Positions 21,655-58,436 of a DNA stretch of 64,000 bases are shown piece by piece (position 1 is the first letter of the stretch; every line of letters begins with the position of its first letter). A model generated the notes under the pieces. The model made no database searches. It was not told the origin of the DNA and was given only the letters and a program-made list of their open reading frames with translations. Origin of the DNA: Macrostomum lignano (taxonomy: Eukaryota). A program made the translations under genes and the position numbers. The stretch spans positions 52,803 to 116,802 of the forward strand of contig NIVC01003145.1 of the NCBI GenBank assembly GCA_002269645.1, read 5' to 3'.

Positions 21655-26619
<4,965 letters not shown>

Positions 26620-37285: not shown

Positions 37286-38227
37286 GAAGTCTGAGAAAAC
37301 CCTAAGCATGCCTTATTGCGAAGGAGCCGAGGGCTGAATAGAGAGAGTTTGCCGACCCCTAAGTTACTAGGGAATTATTTAGATAATGGCGGTGCATCGC
37401 ATGTCTTCGACTGCTTATATTTCTAAGAAAAACAAAGACAGAGAAATGATCTGAAACAATAAAAAGCTAGGATAGACGGGAGACTATTGCTGAATTTAAG
37501 CCGGAAAATTTCACGAGGTTCGGATGGGAATAAAACTAGGCGGTTTGCAAATTTATGAAATGGGATTTTTAAGCTCGTGTTGTGTTGTTGCGGTGCGAAA
37601 GTCTACGCTGTGTTGGGTTTTGGCAATTGGATTTTATAAATATACACTTAAAGGAATGCACAGTTTAGCAATCTCTGCATTTATACCTGATCTGCAGTGT
37701 CTAACAGCACTGAAAACATTGGAATTAAAAATTAAAACAAATACTTGCAAAGTACACCAATTTTTAAAAGAAAAATCTATTTCCATTTACTTAAAATCGG
37801 TTGGCCAAGAAGTCAAAGTCATGCAGCAACTTACTGTCTTTTCTTCGTCAGCGTTAGTTTGACAAAAAAACCAATCTCTATAGGTATGGGGCAAGTAGTG
37901 AACTGGCAGGGAGAAGTCAGCTGATAGAGGTAGGGAAGCAGAGTTAGGGCTGAGGGGCCGGGAAAAAGAGCGAGCATAAATGCTGCCTTTTAGACCGAGT
38001 TTGACTTTACCTCGCGTCCCATAGGTCTGCGAGAGTAGGATGTAGGGGCTGGGGGGGGGTTTCCAGTGTGCCCGCCTCCCATGCATGCGGATCCCCTGCT
38101 CACCCCCGTGTGCTGGGCAATTGCTGGCCAATCGGGATTCGGTTGAGAGCAGAAAGAGCAATAATCTTTTTCCCGTTTTTATTATCGCCCTGCCGCGCAG
38201 CTGTGTGGGTTGGGATTGCCTTCCATT

Positions 38228-40339
<2,112 letters not shown>

Positions 40340-41082
40340 GATTCTCTCTCCCCACAGCCCTCGCAGGTTTTCTGCCTGTACTTATAAATCCCAGTTTAGT
40401 TTACTCTGAGCAGATACAAAGTAACAAACGCCAAAACAATACTTAAAACGAGGAATGTGCAGATATAAAAAGTGTGCAAGTTGTACAGATTAATATTATT
40501 TTTAAATCCATTTTATGAAAGCCTGAATCCCCGTAGCGGTGCAGAATGTTACAAAACTGCCTCTCTTCTGTGTCTGTTTCTGTTTTATTTCTGCAGGGCA
40601 AGATTTCCTCCGCGGCTCGTACTATACCTGTGTGCAGTGCGAAGCTTTTACTGCAGAAGATATGCCTCAATACCTAAAACGCGAATCTACTCTGGAAATC
40701 GGGAATTGATTTATTTGGCCTCTGAAAATGGACTCCTTCTCTACCTAAAATAAGAAAAAAAACATCTGGGATCAGTTTATACAGATTTTACCCAAGTTTT
40801 ACTTGATGCATTTACAAGCCAATAACAGGCCTTTCGTGTGGCTTATAGATTAATTTTTTGCCAACTATTTATTATTGTGTGCACTGCGTCTTTTTAAAGT
40901 AAAAAATAAAGTTAACAAAATTGCTGAGTGAGTGGCATCGGGTGTATTTCTAGAGGCTGGGGTAACAGATGTACCGTAGTAAGTCATTCTGCGATGGGCA
41001 TGTGGGATTAATGGAAACGGTACAGCCACAGGTAGACTGACCTGGTCCCTGAACAGCTCAACATTCCTCGAAAATTCCCCTC

Positions 41083-41430
41083 AACAGTCACCCCAACATT
41101 CCCCCCAACATTCCCCCCAACATTCCCCCCAACATTCCCCCCAACATTCCCCCAACATTCCCCCCAACATTCCCCCAACATTCCCCCCAACATTCCCCCC
41201 AACATTCCCCCCAACATTCCCCCAAACATTCCCCCCAACATTCCCCCCAACATTCCCCCAACATTCCCCCAAACATTCCCCCAACATTCCCCCAACATTC
41301 CCCCCAACATTCCCCCAACATTCCCCCCAACATTCCCCCAACATTCCCCCAACATTCCCCCCAACATTCCCCCAACATTCCCCCCAACATTTCCCCCAAT
41401 TCGCACCAACGTTCCCTCAACATTCCCCCC
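41083..41430. repeat. (CCCCCAACATT)n repeat
   Basis: 11-12-bp units. Confidence 0.92.
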
Positions 41431-43148
41431 AAAATTGTATCAACAACCCAACAAACAATACAATAAGTCCAACAAACAGTTTAACAAATGATCCAACAAA
41501 CAATCCAACAAACAATCCAACAAACAATCCAACGATCCAACAAACGATCCAACAAACGATCCAACAAACGATCCAACAAACAATCCTTCAATCTAACAAA
41601 GATCCAACAAACGATGCAACAAACGATCCAACAAACAATCCAACAAGCAATCCAACAAACGATCCAACAAACAATCCAACAATCCAACAAACGATCCAAC
41701 AAACGATCCAACAAACGATCCAACAAACGATCCAACAAACAATCCAACAATCCAACAAACGATCCAACAAACGATCCAACAAACAATTCTAACAATCCAA
41801 CAAACGATCCAACAAACAATCCAACAATCCAACAAACAATCCAACAAACAATCCAACAAACAATCCAACAATCCAACAAACGATCCAACAAACGATCCAA
41901 CAAACAATCCAACGATCCAACAAATGATCCAACAAACGATCCAACAAACGATCCAACAAACAATCCTTCAATCTAACAAACGATCCAACAAACGATGCAA
42001 CAAACGATCCAACAAATGATCCAACAAACAATCCAACAAACAATCCAACAATCCAACAAACGATCCAACAAACGATCCAACAAACAATTCTAACAATCCA
42101 ACAAACAATCCAACAAACAATCCAACAATCCAACAAACGATCCAACAAACGATCCAACAAACGATCCAACAAACGATCCAACAAACAATCCAACAAACGA
42201 TCCAACAATCCAACAAACGATCCAACAAATGATCCAACAAACAATCCAACAAACAATCCAACAATCCAACAAACGATCCAACAAACGATCCAACAAACAA
42301 TTCTAACAATCCAACAAACAATCCAACAAACAATCCAACAATCAAACAAACAATCCAAAAAACAATCCAACAATCCAACAAACGATCTAACAAACGATCC
42401 AACAAATAATCCAACAAACGATCCAACAAACGATCCAACAAACAATCCTTCAATCTAACAAACGATCCAACAAACGATGCAACAAACGATCCAACAAACA
42501 ATCCAACATGCAATCCAACAAACGATCCATAAAACGATCCAACAAACGATCCAACAAACAATCCAACAATCCAACAAACGATCCAACAAACGATCCAACA
42601 AACGATCCAACAAACGATCCAACAATCCAACAAACGATCCAACAAATGATCCAACAAACAATCCAACAATCCAACAAACGATCCAACAAACGATCCAACA
42701 AACAATTCTAACAATCCAACAAACAATCCAACAAACAATCCAACAATCCAACAAACAATCCAAAAAACAATCCAACAATCCAACAAACGATCTAACAAAC
42801 GATCCAACAAATAATCCAACAAACGATCCAACAAACGATCCAACAAACGATCCAACAAACGATTCAACAAACAATCCAACGATCCAACAAACGATCCAAC
42901 AAACGATCCAACAAACGATACAACAAACGATCCAACAAACAATCCAACAATCCAACAAACGATCCAACAAACGATCCAACAAACGATCCAACAAACAATC
43001 CAACAAACGATCCAACAAACGATCCAACAAACAATCCAACAATCCAACAAACGATCCAACAAACGATCCAACAAACGATCCAACAAACAATCCAACAACC
43101 GATCCAACAAACAATCCAACAACCGATCCAACAAAAAATTCAACAAAC

Positions 43149-44196
43149 TGTAGTGAGCCGCTAGTTTATTGTTAGGCGTCGCCCTTGTCAGCCGCTCCCT
43201 TGCCCTCCCTTTGGGTTGCTGTCTGCCGCTGGTCAGCTTCCCGTCCCTTTTTCGGTTGCCTGTTGCCCCCCGTGTCCCTTTCCACCCTGTTGCGTCTCCG
43301 TTCTCAGCCCTCAGTCTCTCGACTGTGGGCTGTCTCTGTTTCGCTTCCATCCTGTTTTCCTCTGTCATGTGAGCAAGTCACATGACAGCTTTTGCGTTCT
43401 TTGAGTCTTAAAGTGCAGTAAACATGTTTACTGCACTCGTTGGCCCTGTTTACCGGGTGAGTCACATGCTTTCGGACCCCTCCCTTTTCTAAGGAGAGGA
43501 GTGACTCATGTTGCTAAAAATAGCAACTGAGTCACAGCCATGTGTACTCTGCCGGGGACCCTCGAGTGACGTCAGTTCTAAAAATAGAACAAGTCACGAG
43601 GTCTTCCGCGCGCTTGTACCCTGCCTGAGACTCTCGAGTGACGTCAGTTCTAAAAATAGAACAAGTCACGAGGTCTGGAGCGTGGGAATTTCCCGGCTAT
43701 AAATAGGAGCCCTCTCCCCCTTGTTTCCGTCAAGGAGTCTTCCTTCTGTTCAACCTCGAGTTCTACGTCCGCGTGTGACTAAGTCCGAGTGTCCGAATCT
43801 TTGCGCACATTGATTCTGTTCCTATTGCTCCGACTGAGACCCGACCAAACCAATCCAAGTCTACGAGAGGCTAACTCAGCCCTCCCTGTACCATCCAAGC
43901 CCGGCAGGTGCTGCTGACGAGACGCCTTATACGTTGAGCTGCAAATCTGCACGTCGTGCTGTGTTCGTTGACTTCATTATTTCGTTCCGACGGGAAGCTC
44001 ACCTCACCGAAGGCCGAGACCTGAAGGAACTGGTGGCAGCACTACCTACGCTACTAAAGTTAAGAAGGCTTCTAAGTGAGAGGACGGAGCCCAAGTCACT
44101 GCGCTGTACAGCAGGACAACCACAGGTACAACACTGGTGGAAGCGGTGGGATTCAAAGACCTACCAGGCCACCCCGAGAAAACCCAAACTATTTCA
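43149..44196 (+). mobile_element. Solo LTR, copy 1 (probably Ty3/Gypsy-type)
   Basis: TG...CA termini (tgtagtgag...ctatttca), AAAC on both sides consistent with a 4-bp TSD, TATA box ctataaata near 43698, no internal coding region. Confidence 0.75.
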
Positions 44197-44374
44197 AAAC
44201 GATCCAACAAACAATCCAAAACAATCCAACAAACGATCCAACAAACAATCCAACAAACAATCCAACAAACGATCCAACAAACGATCCAACAAACGATCCA
44301 ACAAACAATCCAACAATCCAACAAACGATCCAACAAACGATCCAACAAACGATCCAACAAACGATTCAACAAAC

Positions 44375-45423
44375 TGTAGTGAGCCGCTAGTTTATTGTTA
44401 GGCGTCGCCCTTGTCAGCCGCTCCCTTGCCCTCCCTTTGGGTTGCTGTCTGCCGCTGGTCAGCTTCCCGTCCCTTTTTCGGTTGCCTGTTGCCCCCCGTG
44501 TCCCTTTCCACCCTGTTGCGTCTCCGTTCTCAGCCCTCAGTCTCTCGACTGTGGGCTGTCTCTGTTTCGCTTCCATCCTGTTTTCCTCTGTCATGTGAGC
44601 AAGTCACATGACAGCTTTTGCGTTCTTTGAGTCTTAAAGTGCAGTAAACATGTTTACTGCACTCGTTGGCCCTGTTTACCGGGTGAGTCACATGCTTTCG
44701 GACCCCTCCCTTTTCTAAGGAGAGGAGTGACTCATGTTGCTAAAAATAGCAACTGAGTCACAGCCATGTGTACTCTGCCGGGGACCCTCGAGTGACGTCA
44801 GTTCTAAAAATAGAACAAGTCACGAGGTCTTCCGCGCGCTTGTACCCTGCCTGAGACTCTCGAGTGACGTCAGTTCTAAAAATAGAACAAGTCACGAGGT
44901 CTGGAGCGTGGGAATTTCCCGGCTATAAATAGGAGCCCTCTCCCCCTTGTTTCCGTCAAGGAGTCTTCCTTCTGTTCAACCTCGAGTTCTACGTCCGCGT
45001 GTGACTAAGTCCCGAGTGTCCGAATCTTTGCGCACATTGATTCTGTTCCTATTGCTCCGACTGAGACCCGACCAAACCAATCCAAGTCTACGAGAGGCTA
45101 ACTCAGCCCTCCCTGTACCATCCAAGCCCGGCAGGTGCTGCTGACGAGACGCCTTATACGTTGAGCTGCAAATCTGCACGTCGTGCTGTGTTCGTTGACT
45201 TCATTATTTCGTTCCGACGGGAAGCTCACCTCACCGAAGGCCGAGACCTGAAGGAACTGGTGGCAGCACTACCTACGCTACTAAAGTTAAGAAGGCTTCT
45301 AAGTGAGAGGACGGAGCCCAAGTCACTGCGCTGTACAGCAGGACAACCACAGGTACAACACTGGTGGAAGCGGTGGGATTCAAAGACCTACCAGGCCACC
45401 CCGAGAAAACCCAAACTATTTCA
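44375..45423 (+). mobile_element. Solo LTR, copy 2 (near-identical tandem duplicate)
   Basis: Same sequence as 43149-44196; the one difference noticed is an extra C (aagtcccgag vs aagtccgag). Confidence 0.75.
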
Positions 45424-47362
45424 AAACGATCCAACAAACAATCCAAAACAATCCAACAAACGATCCAACAAACAATCCAACAAACAATCCAACAAACGAT
45501 CCAACAAACGATCCAACAAACGATCCAACAAACAATCCAACAATCCAACAAACGATCCAACAAACGATCCAACAAACGATCCAACAAACGATTCAACAAA
45601 CAATCCAACCATCCAACAAACGATCCAACAAACGATCCAACAAACGATCCAACAAACAATCCTTCAATCTAACAAACGATCCAACAAACAATCTAACAAC
45701 CGATCCAACAAACAATCCAACAACCGATACAACAAACAATCCAACAAACGATCCAACAAACAATCCAAAACAATCCAACAAACGATCCAACAAACAATCC
45801 AACAAACAATCCAACAAACAATCCAACAAACAATCCAACAAACAATCCAACAAACAATCCAACAAACGATCCAACAAACAATCCAACAAACAATCCAACA
45901 AACGATCCAACAAACGATCCAACAAACAATCCAACAAACAATCCAACAAACAATTTAAAACAATCCAACAAACAATCCAACAAACGATCCAACAAACAAT
46001 CCAACAAACGATCCAACAACCGATCCAACAAACGATCCAACAAACAATCCAACAAACAGTCCAACAAACAATCCAACAAACATTCCAACAAACAATCCAA
46101 AACAATCCAACAAACGATCCAACAAACAATCCAACAAACAATCCAACAAACGATCCAACAAACGATCCAACAAACGATCCAACAAACAATCCAACAATCC
46201 AACAAACGATCCAACAAACGATCCAACAAACGATCCAACAAACAATCCAAAACAATCCAACAAACGATCCAACAAACAATCCAACAAACAATCCAACAAA
46301 CAATCCAACAAACGATCCAACAAACAATCCAACAAACGATCCAACAAACAATCCAACAAACAATCCAACAAACAATTTAAAACAATCCAACAAACAATCC
46401 AACAAACGATCCAACAAACAATCCAACAAACGATCCAACAACCGATCCAACAAACGATCCAACAAACAATCCAACAAACAGTCCAACAAACAATCCAACA
46501 AACATTCCAACAAACAATCCAAAACAATCCAACAAACAATCCAACAAACGATCCAACAAACAATCCAACAAACGATCCAACAAACAATCCAACAAACAAT
46601 CCAACAAACGATCCAACAACCGATCCAACAAACAATCCAACAAACGATCCAACAACCGATCCAACAAACTATCCAACAAACAATCCAACAAACGATCCAA
46701 AAAACGATCCAACAAAAATTGCATCACAAGTCACTGAATAATCCCAGTTAAAAGCATTCCTACAACAGCCATTTTGCCAGTCCATGACCTGTAGTGTTGG
46801 ACAACAAGCAAATCAAGTCAGAGTTCGGTTACGATTCAGATGTCGCTGCTATAGCAGTATACAAGCAGTCACAAAACTAGCAAGGTTAATGGGTTGGCTG
46901 GCAAAGTACCGGTTGACCTCCCCAGCCAAGCCATCAGTCCTAAATTACTTTTTATGACTGTCCTCCAAGCCTGCTTGTTCATTTCAGTTTGCACCAAGTA
47001 TTATGGTATTGGGTAGGTCGGGGACACAGGGTCGCATAGAGGGAGGCAGAAGGGGGGTAGAGACGGGGTAAGAAGTAAAAAAGCAGAGTCTCTGAGATCC
47101 GACCTGAGGGACGAAAATATCGATGCTGAAATTTCCTTTCAGCTTGGAAGAAAATGGAACACAAGACGGTATTACCTGATTGCGACCCCAGCTGCAACTG
47201 CCTCTAAAACTCAATTATGTCTATGGCTTATGGTTTTGGAGGCTCGGGCCGGTAGCTAAGGGGAAGGCTTAGAGAATTCTATTTTATTGCTACCACAGCA
47301 ACTTCCCTCTTGCTGTCTTTCATTGAATTCCTTTTAGCATTCTTTAGGTTCCCTTCAGGTCT

Positions 47363-51502: not shown

Positions 51503-52091
51503 AGCAGGGGCGTCGCCACCGGGGGGGGGAGAGGGGGACATGCCCCCCCCCAGTAAAAGATATGGGAGGGCATGCCAATGCTTTCTCCCCTCCCATCCAA
51601 CTTTGTGTCCCGTTATGGAAATTAATAATTTTGCTACAGGGCAACAAAATATAGCGCCTGTGGCGCCAAAATGAGTGTCTGCGGCGCTAAAATGAGTGCC
51701 TGCAGCGCTAAAATGAGTACCTGCAGCGCTAAAATGAGTGCCTATGGCGCAAAAATGAGTACCTGCGGCGCTAAAATGAGTACCTGCAGCGCTAAAATGA
51801 GTACCTGCAGCGCTAAAATGAGTACCTGCAGCGCTAAAATGAGTACCTGCAGCGCTAAAATGAGTACCTGCGGCGCTAAAATGAGTGCCTGCGGCGCTAA
51901 AATAAGTGCCTGCGGCGCTAAAATGAGTTCCTGTGGCGCTAAAATGAGTGCCTGCGGCGCTAAAATGAATGCCTGTGGCGCCAAAATGAGTGCCTGTGGC
52001 GCCAAAATGTACAAAAATAATATGTAATTGTACACGTAGCTTTCTTGGCTTGTCCCCCCCCCACCATAAAATCCATGGCGACGCCCCTGCT
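51503..52091. mobile_element. MITE-like element with 16-bp TIRs and an internal 21-bp minisatellite (51665-52007)
   Basis: AGCAGGGGCGTCGCCA (51503-51518) is the reverse complement of TGGCGACGCCCCTGCT (52076-52091); no clear TSD. Confidence 0.7.
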
Positions 52092-52327
52092 CCCTGGCCA
52101 TGATGATAAGGGGTGTGAGCTGGTCGGGAAGTTGCCCTATAACCGAAGCTGGGATCCTTTGTGGCTGTGACTGACGAAAATCCCAGCGTGCTAGGCTACT
52201 AAGAGTGGTATGAGGGAACTTGAACTCACTGGTTTCCAAATGTTCAGTGTGAGAAGGGTCCTACGAATTCCGTCCATTGCGATGCTTCCAACCTTCCAAT
52301 GCCATCTCTGCCACTCACAATCCCGCA

Positions 52328-52597
52328 AGTAGTATAGAAAAAGACGCTTCTAGACCCAGAGCACTTTTTTAATGACCGTTTTAAGGGTCTAGAGGGGGGA
52401 CACGGGGGGTAAATAAAAAAACACATCTAAACACCATTAACACATCTAATCACCCATAATCACCCCTAACAATAAAAATCAATCCCAACACTTCCAAACA
52501 CTCCCCAACACCCCCCTCGCGTCCCCCCTCTTAAGACCTTACAAACGGCCATTAAAATAAGGTCTGATCTAGAAGCGTCTTTTTCTATACTACTACT
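52328..52597. repeat. Fold-back inverted repeat at the left end of the Polinton
   Basis: AGTAGTATAGAAAAAGACGCTTCTAGA (52328-52354) is perfectly inverted at 52568-52594; the arms extend imperfectly to about 85 bp around a ~100-bp A/C-rich loop. Confidence 0.9.
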
Positions 52598-52651
52598 CTA
52601 TAACCCCTTGCCCGCGCCGCAGGCGCGAAGGGTCTTTTTCTGTTACTAAAA

Positions 52652-52966
52652 ATGACCCGAGTTTACACCTTTTCTGTTAGTGATACTTTTGAGACTGTTG
52701 CTAAAAATGCAGAGATAATAAAACAACATATTTTGAATGGAATAATTGATGAAGTTTATTTAAAATATGACGACAAGCATGACCTAAAGCTTTATCCATT
52801 AGAGCTGGATGAGATGTATGATTTAGAACAAGAGGGTGAGTTAATATTTCAACTTGGAGATTATTTAAATTCGGATGATTGGGAGGTTAGATCAACAGAT
52901 TCCGAATCAACAAATAGTTCATATGAAACCAGTGATTCAGAGAATGAAAGTGAAATTTTTATGTGA
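52652..52966 (+). CDS. Polinton hypothetical acidic protein (104 aa)
   Basis: ORF preceded by TAAAAATG like the other viral genes; no family recognised. Confidence 0.6.
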   Translation: MTRVYTFSVSDTFETVAKNAEIIKQHILNGIIDEVYLKYDDKHDLKLYPLELDEMYDLEQEGELIFQLGDYLNSDDWEVRSTDSESTNSSYETSDSENESEIFM

Positions 52967-52982
52967 AAAAAATATTTAAAAA

Positions 52983-53207
52983 ATGAACTATTATTCTATA
53001 ACAGAAACGACGTTTATTGTGAAAAATATATATAAAAAAATGAAGGTAAACTATTCCTACATCGGAAATGTTCCAATTAATGAACTTAATGAAAATTTAA
53101 GTTTGATAACAGTTGAACAAATGTCAATAATAATATTAGTAACAATTATAGTAATAATATTGTTTTTGTTTGTAATAAAAAATTTACTACCATGTTGTCT
53201 TAAGTAA
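52983..53207 (+). CDS. Polinton small membrane protein (74 aa)
   Basis: C-terminal hydrophobic stretch IIILVTIIVIILFLFVI. Confidence 0.5.
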   Translation: MNYYSITETTFIVKNIYKKMKVNYSYIGNVPINELNENLSLITVEQMSIIILVTIIVIILFLFVIKNLLPCCLK

Positions 53208-53217
53208 CTGTTTGAAC

Positions 53218-54366
53218 TTAGTTCGCAGACATTATTTGGTTCTCATAAAAAGAACCCAATATTTCTTCACCATCCTTATCAGCAATTATATAGGTTGTAG
53301 GATTTGTATTTAAAACTTTACTGATGGTAAATTTCTCACTTATTTTCCAATATCCTTTTCTTCCCTTTTCAAACTTATCTTTCCATTTATAGATATAAAC
53401 AGAATCACCAACCTTAAAACCTTTAGTTTTCTTTTTTTCAAAATCTCCAAAAGTAACCCTAACATTTTCAGGATTGTTATAAGCTTGTTGAGGAGTCATC
53501 TTTATCGCCGAATGATATGAATTGTTATAATCTTTCACTACGTCTGGTAATATTTTTACCCACTTTTGGTTACCATTAAGACTAAACTGAAACCATAATT
53601 TCTTACCTAAAGTTCGATTAAATCTTTCTATTAATGCGTTTTTACTCTCTCCATAAATAGAATAAATTTTATTAATATACTCCCCATTCGCGTCTTTTTT
53701 CCTTTCTTTTCCTTTTTCAAAATGATACAATTTATACATGTGAGGATTGTAAAATTCTTTTCCTTCGTCAACACACAACCTTTCACTTTTTTCTCCAAGA
53801 CTTCTAAAAGCAGCAGCAACCTCCTCTCCCTTTTTGGATTTTAAAGGAACAGCCCACGCGTATCGAGTAAAACCATCTAATATGGTTAAGATATATTTAT
53901 ATCCTCTTTCGTTCGGCATCGACATTAAATCAGCATACCAAATTTCATTCTTTTTGAAGTTCATGATTTTTCTATAAAATTTAGGTTTTCGATATTCTTT
54001 ATGAAGAATCTTTGCCTCATCAGAACTTAACCCGCCGCCACTTAACAACAAACACTCAACACAATTATTTCCATGTTGATTATAATTAATTCCCAAACCA
54101 AATTTAACTTTAGACTGCAAGATCTTTTTAACCATCCACCTAGTTAATTTTTGACCTACCGATAATCCCTGCAAGTTATCTAATCCTTGAATCATTTTTT
54201 GATCGGCTTCATGTTTTAATCTTAATGCTTCCTCGGGCGGGTTCTTGTCAGCATCTCTATATGCTAAGTCGTGATAGTATGCTAACCAATCAATCCCATT
54301 TATTGGAATTGAATCAGATTTTGGGGTGTCATCAGGATTTAATCTCAAATCTAAGCGAGTGCCGGG
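53218..54366 (-). CDS. PLA2-like domain / retroviral-type (rve) integrase fusion gene, exon 2
   Basis: PGTRL...YYHDLAY (PLA2 HDxxY), then Polinton integrase with the DDE triad (YADL, VDEGKEF, IERFNRT) and C-terminal FKVGD...GSFYE; spliced product 424 aa. Confidence 0.92.
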   Translation of the reverse strand, partial: PGTRLDLRLNPDDTPKSDSIPINGIDWLAYYHDLAYRDADKNPPEEALRLKHEADQKMIQGLDNLQGLSVGQKLTRWMVKKILQSKVKFGLGINYNQHGNNCVECLLLSGGGLSSDEAKILHKEYRKPKFYRKIMNFKKNEIWYADLMSMPNERGYKYILTILDGFTRYAWAVPLKSKKGEEVAAAFRSLGEKSERLCVDEGKEFYNPHMYKLYHFEKGKERKKDANGEYINKIYSIYGESKNALIERFNRTLGKKLWFQFSLNGNQKWVKILPDVVKDYNNSYHSAIKMTPQQAYNNPENVRVTFGDFEKKKTKGFKVGDSVYIYKWKDKFEKGRKGYWKISEKFTISKVLNTNPTTYIIADKDGEEILGSFYENQIMSAN

Positions 54367-54698
54367 TAGTTTACCCTCAATCTTTCGAAAGAGGCTGGAG
54401 CACACCTTAAGCGGTTAAATTACCGCCCATCTCCGTCTGCTCTCTGAACCTTCTCCTTATATTTAAAATACTTAGGAGCTTGGCTGCGCATTGCCACCGT
54501 GTCTTCAAGCTTGTTACCATCGAACCATAGGTTCGCGTGCAAAGCACGATTGGGAAGAGGAGTTACCTCTGTTCCTTCAAAAGATTTCTCAATTGAAGTG
54601 GTACTTGAAGCTGTATGATGGGTTTCACGCAATTTGGAGATGTCGCCACAAATAGTGACTAGCAAGGACATTGCCTTCCTCACTCAGGCCACGGGTTA
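54367..54698 (-). ncRNA. Group I self-splicing intron (IC1-like), 332 nt, without a homing ORF
   Basis: P1 CAGGU/GCCUG with U.G at the splice site; P3 CAUCUCC/GGAGAUG; P4 UGCGUG/UGCGCA; P7 G(A)GAGCA/UGCUCC; P8 GCGGU/ACCGC; A-rich bulge AUGGUAACAAGC; GAAA loops in L5b and L9; CCUAAG..UAAGG receptor. Removing it restores the ORF. Confidence 0.92.
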
Positions 54699-54824
54699 AC
54701 CTGTGAAGTTCATTGATGGTAGGTGTAGTTCCCCTGTATATTTACCAGTAGTAAAGATTGGTGGTAAGCTTGTTAATCCTTTTTGAACATCTAACAATCC
54801 TCCTTCAAACACTATTTGGTTCAT
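54699..54824 (-). CDS. PLA2-like domain / integrase fusion gene, exon 1 (MNQ...GELHLPSMNFTG)
   Basis: TAAAAATG start. ELHLPxxNFxG is the N-terminal half of the parvovirus-type PLA2 motif, and it joins exon 2 in frame to give NFTG|PGTRL. Confidence 0.85.
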
Positions 54825-55374
54825 TTTTAATAGCCTTAAAAATACATGAAAGCACCAATTGTTTTGCAAACTCTTCAATGGTTGGTTGTTTAACTTTTTT
54901 ATAGTTATTATCTACGCTAGTTAAGTATCTTTTATTTGTCCAATGTTCAGACTTTTTCATCTGATCTTCATCTTTGTAACTAAACGAAGAAGCGGGAATG
55001 AAATGATCAATATCTAAATTTCCAGTATAATCTTTTGAAACATAATATTTTCTTGTGAAATTTAACCAATCAAAAAAGAATTCTTTTGTGCAATCAAGAT
55101 ATGAGATATAGTCCTTGTCATTAAAATTTTTCAACGCCCAATTTATTCTATTTCTAATTAAAACAATATGTTTGTAATTATCATCATTGTGATACTTGTT
55201 TTTTCTATATTCATTAAATTTATCTTTATTGTTTTTCATCCAAATAGTAGATGAGGTATTATGACAAGATCGACAATCATTTCTAAATTTTTTTGAATCA
55301 TTTCTCCAAAAATAAAATTCTTTCGTCATTGGTTTTTCTTGTTTACACTTAATACAAATCTTTTTAGGTTCCAT
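54805..55374 (-). CDS. HNH-type endonuclease with an N-terminal Cys4 zinc finger (free-standing homing-endonuclease-like)
   Basis: CIKC...CRSC; IDHFIPASSF...HWTNKRYL..VDNNYKK resembles the DHIIP...N...L...N..K HNH motif; overlaps exon 1 of the next gene by 20 nt. Confidence 0.75.
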   Translation of the reverse strand: MEPKKICIKCKQEKPMTKEFYFWRNDSKKFRNDCRSCHNTSSTIWMKNNKDKFNEYRKNKYHNDDNYKHIVLIRNRINWALKNFNDKDYISYLDCTKEFFFDWLNFTRKYYVSKDYTGNLDIDHFIPASSFSYKDEDQMKKSEHWTNKRYLTSVDNNYKKVKQPTIEEFAKQLVLSCIFKAIKNEPNSV

Positions 55375-55401
55375 TTTATAAAAAATAAATTTAACAATTA
55401 A

Positions 55402-56073
55402 TTAAACTCCAGTATGTCCAGCAGCTTTCGCAGCAGCTAAAACAAGTTTTCGCGGTGTTTTAAATCCTTCTCCAACAGCTGGTTTGTTATTTATAGAATT
55501 AACAATCCTTTTATACAAGCTGGTATTTTTAGCAGCTCTTACTCCCAACTCATCATAAAAAATTTTTGCACTTACTAATTCATCCCTAGTATATAATTCA
55601 GGGTTAAATTTTACCCTAGGGTTCATAACAATATTATATGCTCCGCCCAATTCTCTATATAGTTCATTTCGATTTTTATCAACTCCACCAATTCGATAAT
55701 TATTATTACCTAAATCTGTCACAGCAATACTAGTTGGTGCAGCTCTCGGATATTCATCAACTCCACCCCTTTCTGCAGCCCTAATCTCTGCAACTCTCAA
55801 TTGAGCTTGATCAACATCATAAGCTGGCGGCTCATCCAAAATTTCATCCTCTTTTGGCTCCGTATTTTTAGCAATTTTTTCCAGAAGATCTTTATCTGTT
55901 TTTTCTAGTTCACTAATTTTCCCAGTAATAGGATTAACAAAAGGAGCAGCAAATCTTTCACCAGCTAATTGTATTCCTAACTTTCTTTTTTGTAAATTTC
56001 TAACAAAATCAGAATATCTTTGCTTCTCTTTATAAATCGCTAACTCTCCATCAACGTCCATAAATTGACTCAT
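55402..56073 (-). CDS. Polinton hypothetical protein (223 aa), possible virion core protein
   Basis: TAAAAAATG start; the C-terminus LVLAAAKAAGHTGV resembles a motif recurrent in Polinton accessory proteins (recalled, not searched). Confidence 0.6.
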   Translation of the reverse strand: MSQFMDVDGELAIYKEKQRYSDFVRNLQKRKLGIQLAGERFAAPFVNPITGKISELEKTDKDLLEKIAKNTEPKEDEILDEPPAYDVDQAQLRVAEIRAAERGGVDEYPRAAPTSIAVTDLGNNNYRIGGVDKNRNELYRELGGAYNIVMNPRVKFNPELYTRDELVSAKIFYDELGVRAAKNTSLYKRIVNSINNKPAVGEGFKTPRKLVLAAAKAAGHTGV

Positions 56074-56107
56074 TTTTTAACATAAAAAACTTTTTTAACT
56101 TAAAAAA

Positions 56108-57577
56108 ATGGCTGAAACAAAAACTATGTGGAGTGATAAATTTCATTTCAAAAAGCACCGACAGTATATTAATGAGGTCAGAGCAAGAGATTTAAATTAT
56201 ACCCTACCAACAAGTGATAATTCAAATAACTTTACTACTGGAACGGTAACTTTTGACATCGGCGCAACCAACACTATATTGGATATGAAAAATGCATTTT
56301 TCCGTGTTAGATGGTTGTATACTAGAAATGATGGAACTGCTCTTGCAGCCGGAGATATCGCAGATCGATCCGGAATAATAATAGAAAATGATTGGTTTTA
56401 TAAATGTTTTTCCCAAGCTCAACTAACTGTTAATGGTGCTGAGGTTGAGACATCATCAAACCCCGCAGAGATTAATGGAGTTTTGAAACATTTAAATTAT
56501 ACTTATTTATCAAAACAAGTTGGTGATAATGTTGGGTGGATGCCGGATAAAGGTAACGGTCAAGCAGTAGTTTTCCCTAATGTACAAAACGCAGCCGGTG
56601 CAGATACTGCAGCGCTAATTGTTTACCTTAATACAAACATAGTTCCAGTTGTAACCACTATGACTAATACAAAAGATATTAATACTGGTTTTATAGATAG
56701 ACAGACTAAATTCCCAGTAGCGGTTTTAACCACAGCAACAGCATATGAGCAGGACTTTTCAATCTTCCGCTATTTGGGTTCTTCTCACCAAATCGGTATG
56801 GAAAGGATTAAAATTTGGGATACAGTTGCAAATATCTGGTGGATATCAGCCTAGGATACTTTATGGAACCTCAATTTCAACCGATATAGCAGTTCGTATA
56901 GATTCAATTCAATTAGTCGTACCAACTATTGAGGTAACAGCCCCACTTTTAAAACACATCGATAATCAGTTAACGCATGATCAGGAAATATTTTATTTGA
57001 ATCGTCGACATTTTATGCGAACCATTAATAATAACCAGGATTCATTCCAGTGGCAAATACTGACATCAAAACGTCGGGTGAGATATATTTTTGTTTGGTT
57101 TAAGATAACAAATAGAAGGAGTAAAAGAGCAAATGGGGATTTATATTGGCTTCAATCCGGTGCCATAGCAGAACAAGCAGCCACCGCAACAGACAATGCG
57201 GCTGCAGCTATTAACGAGTTTAATGTTCAGAATATCCGCCTGCAGGTTGATGATCAATATTATCCGGTTAAAGACCCCTAAATTTAAATATAGCAAATAA
57301 TAATGTTAATGATTTTATAAAATATTATCAAGATTATGCTAAAAATGAAGCGTATGCCGTCCCTCAGTACACACCCACAGAGTTTCTAAACATTCATCCA
57401 GTGGTTGTTTATGATCTAACGGCACAGAAAGAAAACGTAGCCAATATTGGACTTAATTATATGTTAGAGATTAATAAAACTGGTAATCAGGCACTTGACG
57501 CCCACGTATTGTTTCTAGAGGAATATATGTCAATTGCTAAAGCTGATGGCACGATTGTTCGGGACGCGCCACTTTAG
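56108..57577 (+). CDS. Major capsid protein (double jelly-roll), two single-base frameshifts near 56780 and 57278
   Basis: FSQAQLTVNGAEVE...VGW; the second frame continues TKSVWKGLKFGIQL...QYYPVKDP; the third continues LNLNI...EFLNIHPVVVYDLTAQKE...APL-stop at 57575-57577. Confidence 0.85.
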
Positions 57578-57660
57578 TGTCGCAGTGCAAAGCACGTCGC
57601 CCCCGCTGTAAGCGGCGCAGGTCTCCGACCGTCGCGCCTATTTAAATTATTTCTTTAAAA

Positions 57661-58422
57661 ATGGTAAAGGCAAAACACGATAAGATATTTCCAAATGATC
57701 CTTTTCTTTGTTTAGTAATCGGAGGATCAGGTAAAGGAAAAACACACTTTGTTTACGATTTATTAACAACAGATGGAATGCTAGACTATAATAATTTAAT
57801 AATTTATACTAATAAACCTAGAATAAAATATTATGAATTTCTTAAACATGGATTAAAAAACAAATTAAAAAAAGATGTCTTGTTTAGAATGTTAAGAGCA
57901 TATGAGCAATATGAGGATGATGACGAACCGCGATTTACACTCGATGACATTGAGGATTTATGTAAAACAATGGCACAACAGCCAGAAAACATCACCGAAC
58001 GAGCCCCAACTGTTAGAGTATCAACCCGATTAGCCTATGATCAAATTCCAAAACATGATAAAACACTAATTATTTTTGATGATTGTATTAATGACGGTGA
58101 TCAAGAATTGCAAAAGGAAATTTTTGTTAGTGGTAGAGGAGATGGAATTGGAGCTTTTTATCTAACACAGTCCTTTAGAGAATTAGAATCGATTATAAAA
58201 AAGAATGCAAGTTGTTGTGTAATGTTTGATTTAGATAATTATGATTTACAAAATATACACGCTAGATTTAATCCCGGGTTGGATGCAAAACCATTTAAAA
58301 GTATGTGTAAAAAAATTTGGGATGATAGCCAATACAAACATATTTATATCAATCCGAGGTTAGAAAGGAAAAATCGAATCTTAAAAGATCTTATAAAAGA
58401 AGACAATGAGGAAGAAGAATAA
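57661..58422 (+). CDS. A32/FtsK-like DNA packaging ATPase
   Basis: Walker A GGSGKGKT, Walker B LIIFDD, and the SGRG...FYLTQS motif. Confidence 0.93.
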   Translation: MVKAKHDKIFPNDPFLCLVIGGSGKGKTHFVYDLLTTDGMLDYNNLIIYTNKPRIKYYEFLKHGLKNKLKKDVLFRMLRAYEQYEDDDEPRFTLDDIEDLCKTMAQQPENITERAPTVRVSTRLAYDQIPKHDKTLIIFDDCINDGDQELQKEIFVSGRGDGIGAFYLTQSFRELESIIKKNASCCVMFDLDNYDLQNIHARFNPGLDAKPFKSMCKKIWDDSQYKHIYINPRLERKNRILKDLIKEDNEEEE

Positions 58423-58436
58423 TTCCCACTATAAAA

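Follow-up and report, generated by a model that had tools for sequence, protein, structure and literature searches.

A group I intron in the PLA2-integrase gene of Macrostomum lignano Polintons as a probable shield against a predicted GGNCC-cutting nuclease, with an HNH nuclease as the alternative occupant of the same slot

A gene for a small, free-standing nuclease lies directly beside a group I intron in the 64,000-nt stretch of Macrostomum lignano DNA analyzed here (the window). The question raised by this locus is whether the two form a selfish pair, as described under the name collaborative homing for the endonuclease F-CphI and the ORF-less psbA intron of cyanophage S-PM2 (PMC6083498, PMC3984707). 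An earlier note, made from the letters of the window, had proposed just such a two-component system among Polinton copies. The anatomy was as it had been read: a 189-aa zinc-finger/HNH-type open reading frame (ORF) overlaps the PLA2 gene by 20 nt (PLA2 start codon at 54824), and its stop codon (54805) falls 106 nt short of the point where exon 1 ends (54699) and the intron is inserted. The intron indeed has no endonuclease ORF of its own; its sole ORF of at least 60 aa (54420-54671) is the frame of the catalytic core, into which the intron-encoded nucleases of relatives read through. A nuclease-plus-intron system was present, but the evidence pointed mainly to a second nuclease, of the PD-(D/E)XK type, and not to the HNH protein as the partner of the intron.

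The features of the locus are listed in Table 1. The element is a Polinton, as the earlier note had it: Pfam recognized an rve integrase, an A32 ATPase, and PLA2, with the match to a double-jelly-roll capsid coming from family B, a Polinton family whose PLA2 is 58% identical. Another gene, recognized by its motifs, presumably encodes the polymerase. The host is an animal, as indicated by 86 matches to Wnt genes above the cut-off in the assembly. PLA2 and integrase share one reading frame (53218-54824), and splicing would be required to produce integrase from the first ATG; in the intron-less copy L031, a single 424-aa ORF contains both PLA2 (PF08398) and rve (PF00665), and 200 codons of exon 2 are open in 65/87 copies. 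An LSGGG stretch between the two domains resembles an adenoviral protease site. In the window's copy, the capsid gene is fragmented (56108-57281), though the studied locus is ~99% identical to its nearest sisters. The only Pfam match in a polymerase-like ORF of family A (L138:332-2929) is an Endonuclease VII domain (PF02945; E = 2e-7). The replication genes of family B vary, with a piece of a D5/PriCT-2 primase-helicase and a Prim-Pol in some copies and a polymerase-like gene in others. The host flank contains long microsatellite and tandem-repeat tracts (22001-26000, 38085-47000, and 51671-52101) that yield spurious ORFs.

Table 1 Coordinates of features of the locus, in the window unless a locus handle (L) is given
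Feature	Location	Strand	Basis or remarks
Family A Polinton/adintovirus-like element, cut by window end	52328..64000	.	Integrase, capsid gene in pieces, A32 ATPase; 0 GGNCC in 11.7 kb
Exon 2, with PLA2 core continuous in frame with rve integrase	53218..54366	-	
ORF-less group I intron, 332 nt, between Gly and Pro codons (GGN/CC), last base A	54367..54698	-	RF00028; intron-less copies
P9 hairpin, P9.0 partner CU, terminal A	54367..54394	-	
P7 strands (54438-54446 and 54397-54402), guanosine-site G-C pair present	54397..54446	-	Alignment by eye
GC-rich double-hairpin insert in P5 extension, missing from 303-nt introns	54521..54548	-	
Short P2-region hairpin; family B introns hold the PD-(D/E)XK ORF at this place	54645..54663	-	
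Internal guide sequence, pairing with exon CAGGU; U-G wobble at 5' splice site	54685..54690	-	
PLA2-integrase exon 1, 42 codons, last = Gly codon GGT	54699..54824	-	
Zinc-finger and HNH (beta-beta-alpha-metal) nuclease gene, free-standing, 189 aa	54805..55374	-	ORF, relatives, model
AT-rich promoter/start motif directly upstream of HNH gene	55375..55400	-	Read by eye
Conserved 223-aa gene upstream of slot	55402..56073	-	
Loci with second intron type	L018, L019, L047-L050, L053, L064, L065, L092, L112-L116, L118, L121		
Family B replication genes	L141:83-1213, L077:1835-2509, L143:6887-9920		

The intron scored 62.1 bits against RF00028 (gathering score, 50; E = 2.6e-15) and had a fold z score of -3.87; a gathering scan of the whole window had missed it. 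Its ends (54698-54367) were set by three natural intron-less copies (L031 to L033), in which exon 1 is joined directly to the P-G-T-R codons. The 3' end given by Rfam (54376) was rejected as the splice site, as that G lies in the P9 stem and the intron-less copies join 10 nt further on; a spliceosomal intron was rejected by eye, as the reading meets a stop. The catalytic core, the U-G pair at the 5' splice site, and the G-C pair of P7 were all found, with P7 and the guanosine site assigned by eye against Tetrahymena numbering; a terminal G, another hallmark of the class, is replaced by A in the window copy. The copies have P1 (including its U-G pair), P7, and P9 in common, and four copies show a compensatory change in P9. 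The assembled contigs of four runs, whose status as RNA was guessed or unknown, contained no splice joint, which bears neither way on splicing.

We searched the 764-Mb assembly and took 170 PLA2- or nuclease-centered loci and 20 flanking stretches, a part of all matches. Matches numbered 130 for HNH, 103 for PD-(D/E)XK, and 150 scored of 501 candidates for PLA2, with extra group I introns at 73 to 91 bits; these totals count fragments and duplicated loci as well and should not be read as copy numbers. In family A, the slot between the 223-aa gene and PLA2 holds either HNH (68 of 105 classifiable loci) or a 167-aa PD-(D/E)XK protein (37 loci). The swap is precise, as the first codons are common to both genes and both end at the PLA2 start. 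The HNH gene is preceded by an AT-rich motif; sister copies have a motif of the same kind ahead of the PD-(D/E)XK gene, and family B has one ahead of the PLA2 start. The nuclease thus seems to sit between the upstream motif of PLA2 and its start codon. The main intron accompanies HNH in 55 loci and PD-(D/E)XK in 30, a second intron type accompanies HNH in 10 and PD-(D/E)XK in 7, and three loci with HNH, and none with PD-(D/E)XK, are without an intron (loci with a missing exon, namely, L051, L093, L119, L120, L122, L125, L151, L152, and L155, were left out). In L119 and L120, which lie on one contig, a fragment of another gene, in inverted orientation, comes after HNH, and the PLA2 exon is absent. 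In a search with the intron-less junction, 150 of the 409 candidates were scored, and these three were the only intron-less family A copies among them; two are nearly the same in sequence, and one is frameshifted while two are apparently intact.

In family B and more distant PLA2 lineages, the PD-(D/E)XK gene lies within the P2-region loop of the intron in 26/26 intron-bearing loci, and 25 intron-less loci have neither nuclease in the 1.4 to 2.7 kb upstream that was examined (L079, a hybrid, and L090, L161, L162, and L170 were left out of this count). HNH was not found in the family B copies examined. Among classifiable loci, PD-(D/E)XK occurs only with the intron, in 37/37 family A loci and 26/26 family B or more distant loci, with five further partial PD-(D/E)XK loci being unclassifiable. 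The earlier note had looked to joint occurrence of HNH and intron in support of its model and had named an HNH gene equally common in intron-less relatives as evidence against it. Joint occurrence was seen in 65 copies, but at least 37 intron-bearing copies have PD-(D/E)XK instead, and the fact that all three intron-less copies carry HNH touches that objection; the intron-less share (3/68 HNH copies versus 0/37 PD-(D/E)XK copies) does not differ significantly (Fisher P = 0.27, one sided).

The PD-(D/E)XK protein resembles restriction enzymes. RE_Eco47II (PF09553) matched 10/10 aligned members (best E = 4e-7), with the query scoring 20.6, under the gathering score of 25.9. In its structural model (pLDDT, 89), the best match was EcoO109I (Z = 9.7; rmsd, 3.6; 165 aligned), and AvaII matched at a Z of 6.1. 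GGNCC is the site of an Eco47II homologue (PMC10305163), and EcoO109I and AvaII recognize RGGNCCY and GGWCC, respectively (PMC12944874). By sequence and model, the protein is kin of restriction enzymes with a GGNCC core, and we predict that it cuts GGNCC. A Pfam scan of 33 ORFs (not every ORF of a complete element) revealed no methylase.

Avoidance of GGNCC was predicted from the Pfam match ahead of counting. The element in the window has 0 GGNCC (11.2 expected), other family A stretches have 0 (7.8), 1 (9.0), and 0 (7.5), and family B stretches have 0 (8.1), 0 (10.4), and 0 (9.8); one family B set that took in its upstream flank has 6 (13.3). A codon-shuffle scan of 544 gapped patterns ranked GGNCC first for depletion, and synonymous-shuffle tests taken alone were modest (fraction of 0.02 to 0.11 per copy). 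RGGNCCY alone was rejected as the avoided site, since all GGNCC are gone. Because the copies within a family are related, the avoidance is shown by only about two independent lineages. Formally, the loss could be compositional or driven by the host, with the intron sitting at Gly-Pro merely because group I introns favor conserved motifs, and host DNA is itself short of GGNCC (89 versus 148.5 expected; ratio, 0.6). However, the seven Polinton stretches contain 0 or 1 GGNCC while near-cognate words occur about as often as expected, a third Polinton family of the same genome has an excess (12 versus 7.9 expected), Gly-Pro is absent (0 versus 12.5 expected in 6,995 aa) while Pro-Gly is normal (14), and the nuclease was independently matched to enzymes with a GGNCC core; we therefore consider this explanation very improbable.

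Gly-Pro codons always spell GGNCC, and so the Gly-Pro pair of PLA2 forces one GGNCC on the element, which is the one that the intron splits. In 12/13 intron-less copies of a first batch, the junction was the sole GGNCC of the region, and the junction GGNCC was kept in 13/15 further intron-less copies. The intron-less copies L169 and L171 have lost it by a Pro-to-Gln change.

The occupancy of the slot, the purge of GGNCC, and the split Gly-Pro site together make it most likely that the intron protects against a GGNCC cutter and is spread along with it. We put the probability of this reading, a pair of intron and GGNCC cutter in a Polinton with HNH as a second nuclease, at about 0.62. Cleavage, splicing, and homing are inferred to proceed as follows. 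The PLA2-integrase protein would have an essential Gly-Pro pair, always encoded as GGNCC; the PD-(D/E)XK nuclease would cut GGNCC, and the element would be protected by loss of GGNCC elsewhere instead of by a methylase. The group I intron would break the last GGNCC in the DNA, and splicing would restore the message. Intron and nuclease would form a pair of shield and sword, with the nuclease encoded in the intron in family B and next to it in family A. Where two elements share a cell, the nuclease would cut intron-less or unpurged rivals, and repair would copy in the intron and sometimes the nuclease gene too. HNH, most likely a long-site homing endonuclease, occupies this slot in roughly two thirds of the family A copies, and its carriers would be immune to the GGNCC cutter through the intron; if HNH targets the intron-less junction, the intron-less HNH carriers would escape through flanking changes. 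Two points count against a shield: the genome that encodes the cutter still has at least 25 intron-less copies whose site is intact or almost so, and a 5-base cutter would have to be tolerated in an animal cell. A broader proposal, namely, methylase-free Polinton restriction made up of the GGNCC cutter, the loss of GGNCC and Gly-Pro, and the site-breaking intron, with an unrelated HNH that converged on intron and slot and competes for them, seems to us about an even bet.

The HNH protein has cysteines at positions 7, 10, 34, and 37 near its N terminus and, further on, D123-H124, N147, N156, and K159. A full HMMER search returned 2,547 relatives at E <= 0.001, and the query was aligned with 141 of 150 listed relatives (142 sequences). 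In this alignment, H124 is invariant, and G94, D123, P127, N147, N156, and K159 are at least 90% conserved (the window's protein has D94 where at least 90% of the relatives have G); the catalytic motif of HNH nucleases (D-H, central N, and metal-binding N or H) is present as D123-H124, N147, and N156. Pfam gave 0 matches for the protein, PHROG matched it to endonuclease VII (E = 9e-7) and HNH (E = 1e-4), and among named clusters of the ESM Atlas, those closest to it are HNH (0.87 to 0.89). A word-index search confirmed 0/24 candidates, and sequence searches of the PDB gave no clear match. The catalytic residues agree with the HNH fold proposed in the earlier note, the AlphaFold model is confident (pLDDT, 93.9), and the top rows of Foldseek are HNH domains, but the fold matches are weak: the best Foldseek E value was 0.04, with none reaching 0.001, and VIA-align gave Z scores of 5.3 for Hpy99I (residues 1 to 42), 5.0 for Cap5, and 4.2 for IscB, with HNH rows at 3.4 to 5.0. 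The protein does not belong with the DHHRN family (Endo VII and F-CphI), which is defined by a DHDH core, flanking zinc cysteines, a conserved Arg, and the absence of a central Asn (PMC6083498); it has DIDHF, the central N147, and a catalytic core without flanking cysteine pairs.

Relatives outside the genome tie both nucleases to this intron family. In the HNH protein P0009 (35% identity), the reading frame continues straight into the core of this intron family (E = 4e-13), the intron position being taken from the read-through peptide; the same read-through occurs in 4/6 other members of its cluster, and more distant HNH proteins show a weak trace of it (P0067, E = 0.001; P0047, E = 0.004). 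Among outside PD-(D/E)XK relatives, 10/24 end in a peptide spelled by the core of this intron. Scans of viral contigs with PLA2, the intron pattern, and both nuclease alignments, together with two metagenome scans, confirmed no outside relative with DNA context. With HNH apparently intact and P0009 reading into this intron family, HNH is probably a second homing nuclease, one with a long site. It is unlikely to be a GGNCC cutter, since GGNCC is retained in the intron-less HNH copies, which occupy two separate positions among the intron-bearing copies in a quick HNH tree. A motif-avoidance search for a short HNH target found no short motif wholly purged in family A alone, which fits either a long site or an inactive HNH. 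CTNAG, partly depleted in family A only (3 versus 12.7, 4 versus 13.1, and 3 versus 8.2 expected), is at most a weak lead, with HNH-bearing copies keeping 7 to 12 sites. As to what HNH would cut, we tentatively place the intron-less junction, as a long site, ahead of the other candidates; a rival allele or flank is a less likely target, and a protein with no target or with a viral housekeeping role is somewhat less likely again.

The model of the earlier note in its strict form, in which the intron has HNH for its partner, intron-less PLA2 is cut by HNH so that both are mobilized, and PD-(D/E)XK is incidental, draws on the position of HNH 106 nt from the site, on its intact catalytic residues, on the P0009 read-through, and on synonymous diversity, which reaches 0.22 to 0.28 in three 10-codon windows near the insertion site while the integrase is mostly below 0.15. 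This raised diversity fits repeated cutting there without pointing to a particular enzyme. A dN/dS of HNH below 1 and its precise swap with PD-(D/E)XK in one slot also speak for the earlier note. We consider the strict model improbable because HNH is present in each of the three family A copies that lack the intron, at two positions of the HNH tree, only PD-(D/E)XK is found inside introns of this genome (26 copies), GGNCC is lost also in family B, where HNH was not found, and HNH and intron haplotypes are weakly linked (rho, 0.19 to 0.31 with the 3' half of exon 1 and the 5' part of the intron, values that low intron diversity depresses, versus ~0.5 with the upstream gene). That HNH tracks the upstream gene would suit another view, in which HNH is a selfish nuclease independent of the intron that cuts the rival PD-(D/E)XK allele or the flanks and takes the slot (intronless homing). 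So would the precise swap at shared first codons and PLA2 start, the faster change in the N-terminal and linker parts of HNH (dN/dS, 0.73 and 0.61, versus 0.42 in the catalytic half), and the presence of HNH in 68/105 slots though 102/105 copies have the intron, intron-less targets consequently being rare in the family. Against it, P0009 ties the HNH subfamily to the intron elsewhere, and the commonest exon-1 end is common to 33 HNH and 12 PD-(D/E)XK copies, so that this stretch cannot separate them. Intronless homing, which is compatible with an intron shield, strikes us as unlikely, though less so than the strict model.

HNH might instead be a decaying passenger, or a domesticated viral nuclease for packaging or host DNA breakdown, without a part in homing. 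Purifying selection on it is the weakest among the genes tested (dN/dS, 0.56, versus 0.25 for PD-(D/E)XK, 0.13 for the integrase, and 0.06 for PLA2 exon 2), its ORF is full length in 49/68 copies, and HNH genes beside packaging genes have been discussed for polinton-like viruses (PLVs) (PMC12220804). Yet the gene is dispensable, being absent from 37 family A copies and from all family B copies examined, it is replaced by an unrelated nuclease, and D-H..N..N is kept in nearly all full-length copies. We regard such a role as doubtful, standing between intronless homing and the strict model, and we retain the reading in which the intron shields against the PD-(D/E)XK nuclease.

Compared with F-CphI and psbA, the Polinton system would work like collaborative homing, a likeness that is partly supported and best so for the PD-(D/E)XK partner. 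It differs in that the virus is eukaryotic and integrated, with two unrelated nucleases in one slot; in that the better-supported partner resembles a 5-base restriction enzyme, with genome-wide site loss; and in that free-standing and intron-encoded states coexist in one genome, with the tree leaning toward exit from the intron. The free-standing PD-(D/E)XK clade is placed among intron read-through forms in midpoint-rooted trees lacking an outgroup, and the read-through frame is open in 78/82 family A introns, which one ancestral sequence could explain. This leans weakly toward exit of the PD-(D/E)XK nuclease from the intron, opposite to the route proposed for phages (PMC3984707). Collaborative homing has also been raised as a hypothesis for helicases and replicases (PMC11296320, 10.64898/2026.10.13.758929). 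Chloroviruses and marseilleviruses are likewise eukaryotic viruses with type II-like restriction nucleases, proposed to exclude coinfecting viruses, but there a paired methylase protects the genome (PMC7253447), while in the Polinton none was seen among the ORFs checked and protection appears to come from site loss and the intron. PLVs of protists have RF00028 introns of 309 to 376 bp in protein genes, as well as homing-type HNH and GIY-YIG nuclease genes; their hosts are protists, however, the intron lies in a short ORF before the capsid gene, and the available text names no nuclease partner or target (PMC12220804). The PLA2X module of alpha adintoviruses likewise places a PLA2-like gene in an animal Polinton that also encodes integrase, ATPase, and capsid, whereas the PLA2 of the window is in frame with the integrase and has a group I intron inside, a PLA2 intron not being mentioned in the available text of PMC8502044.

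In a literature search, with subscription journals mostly outside its coverage, neither introns in animal Polintons nor a group I intron in a Polinton PLA2 turned up, and the same holds for GGNCC avoidance combined with an intron shield; the supplementary intron tables of PMC12220804 may affect how new these findings are. The present introns number in the hundreds and lie in a protein gene within an animal assembly, in contrast to a 2013 review which, in the part available, limits nuclear group I introns to the rRNA genes of microorganisms (PMC3679873). If our reading is true, collaborative homing would be carried from phages to animal-integrated viruses, the intron would gain a testable job, namely, immunity to a restriction-like enzyme, and self-protection by site loss and intron would replace methylation. 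The presence of free-standing and intron-encoded forms of one nuclease in one genome makes the debated origin of mobile introns directly testable.

The introns themselves vary within the family. The second, divergent group I intron (~325 nt; RF00028, 31.9 bits; E = 2e-6) occupies the same site, occurs with either nuclease, and has an altered 3' exon start. GC-rich double-hairpin inserts of ~30 to 35 nt come and go across the family, at 54521-54548 in the window and, in other copies, in the gap that separates HNH from PLA2 and on the upstream side of the slot. Of 84 family A introns tried, 83 were parsed, and the last base of these is A in 62 and G in 21; a cruder count gave 64 A, 19 G, and 1 misregistered. 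A group I intron ending in A is also known from hexacoral mitochondria, where ND5-717 is reported to be spliced with correctly ligated exons in vivo (PMC6545197); ND5-717 is mitochondrial and obligatory, whereas the intron described here is viral, nuclear-integrated, and A/G polymorphic within one family. P9.0 pairs directly ahead of the last base of the intron, and its CU is intact in all 62 A-ending family A introns but broken in 10/21 G-ending ones (P = 1e-7, calculated on copies that are not independent). Such natural A- and G-ending copies of one intron provide a ready comparison for 3' splice-site choice.
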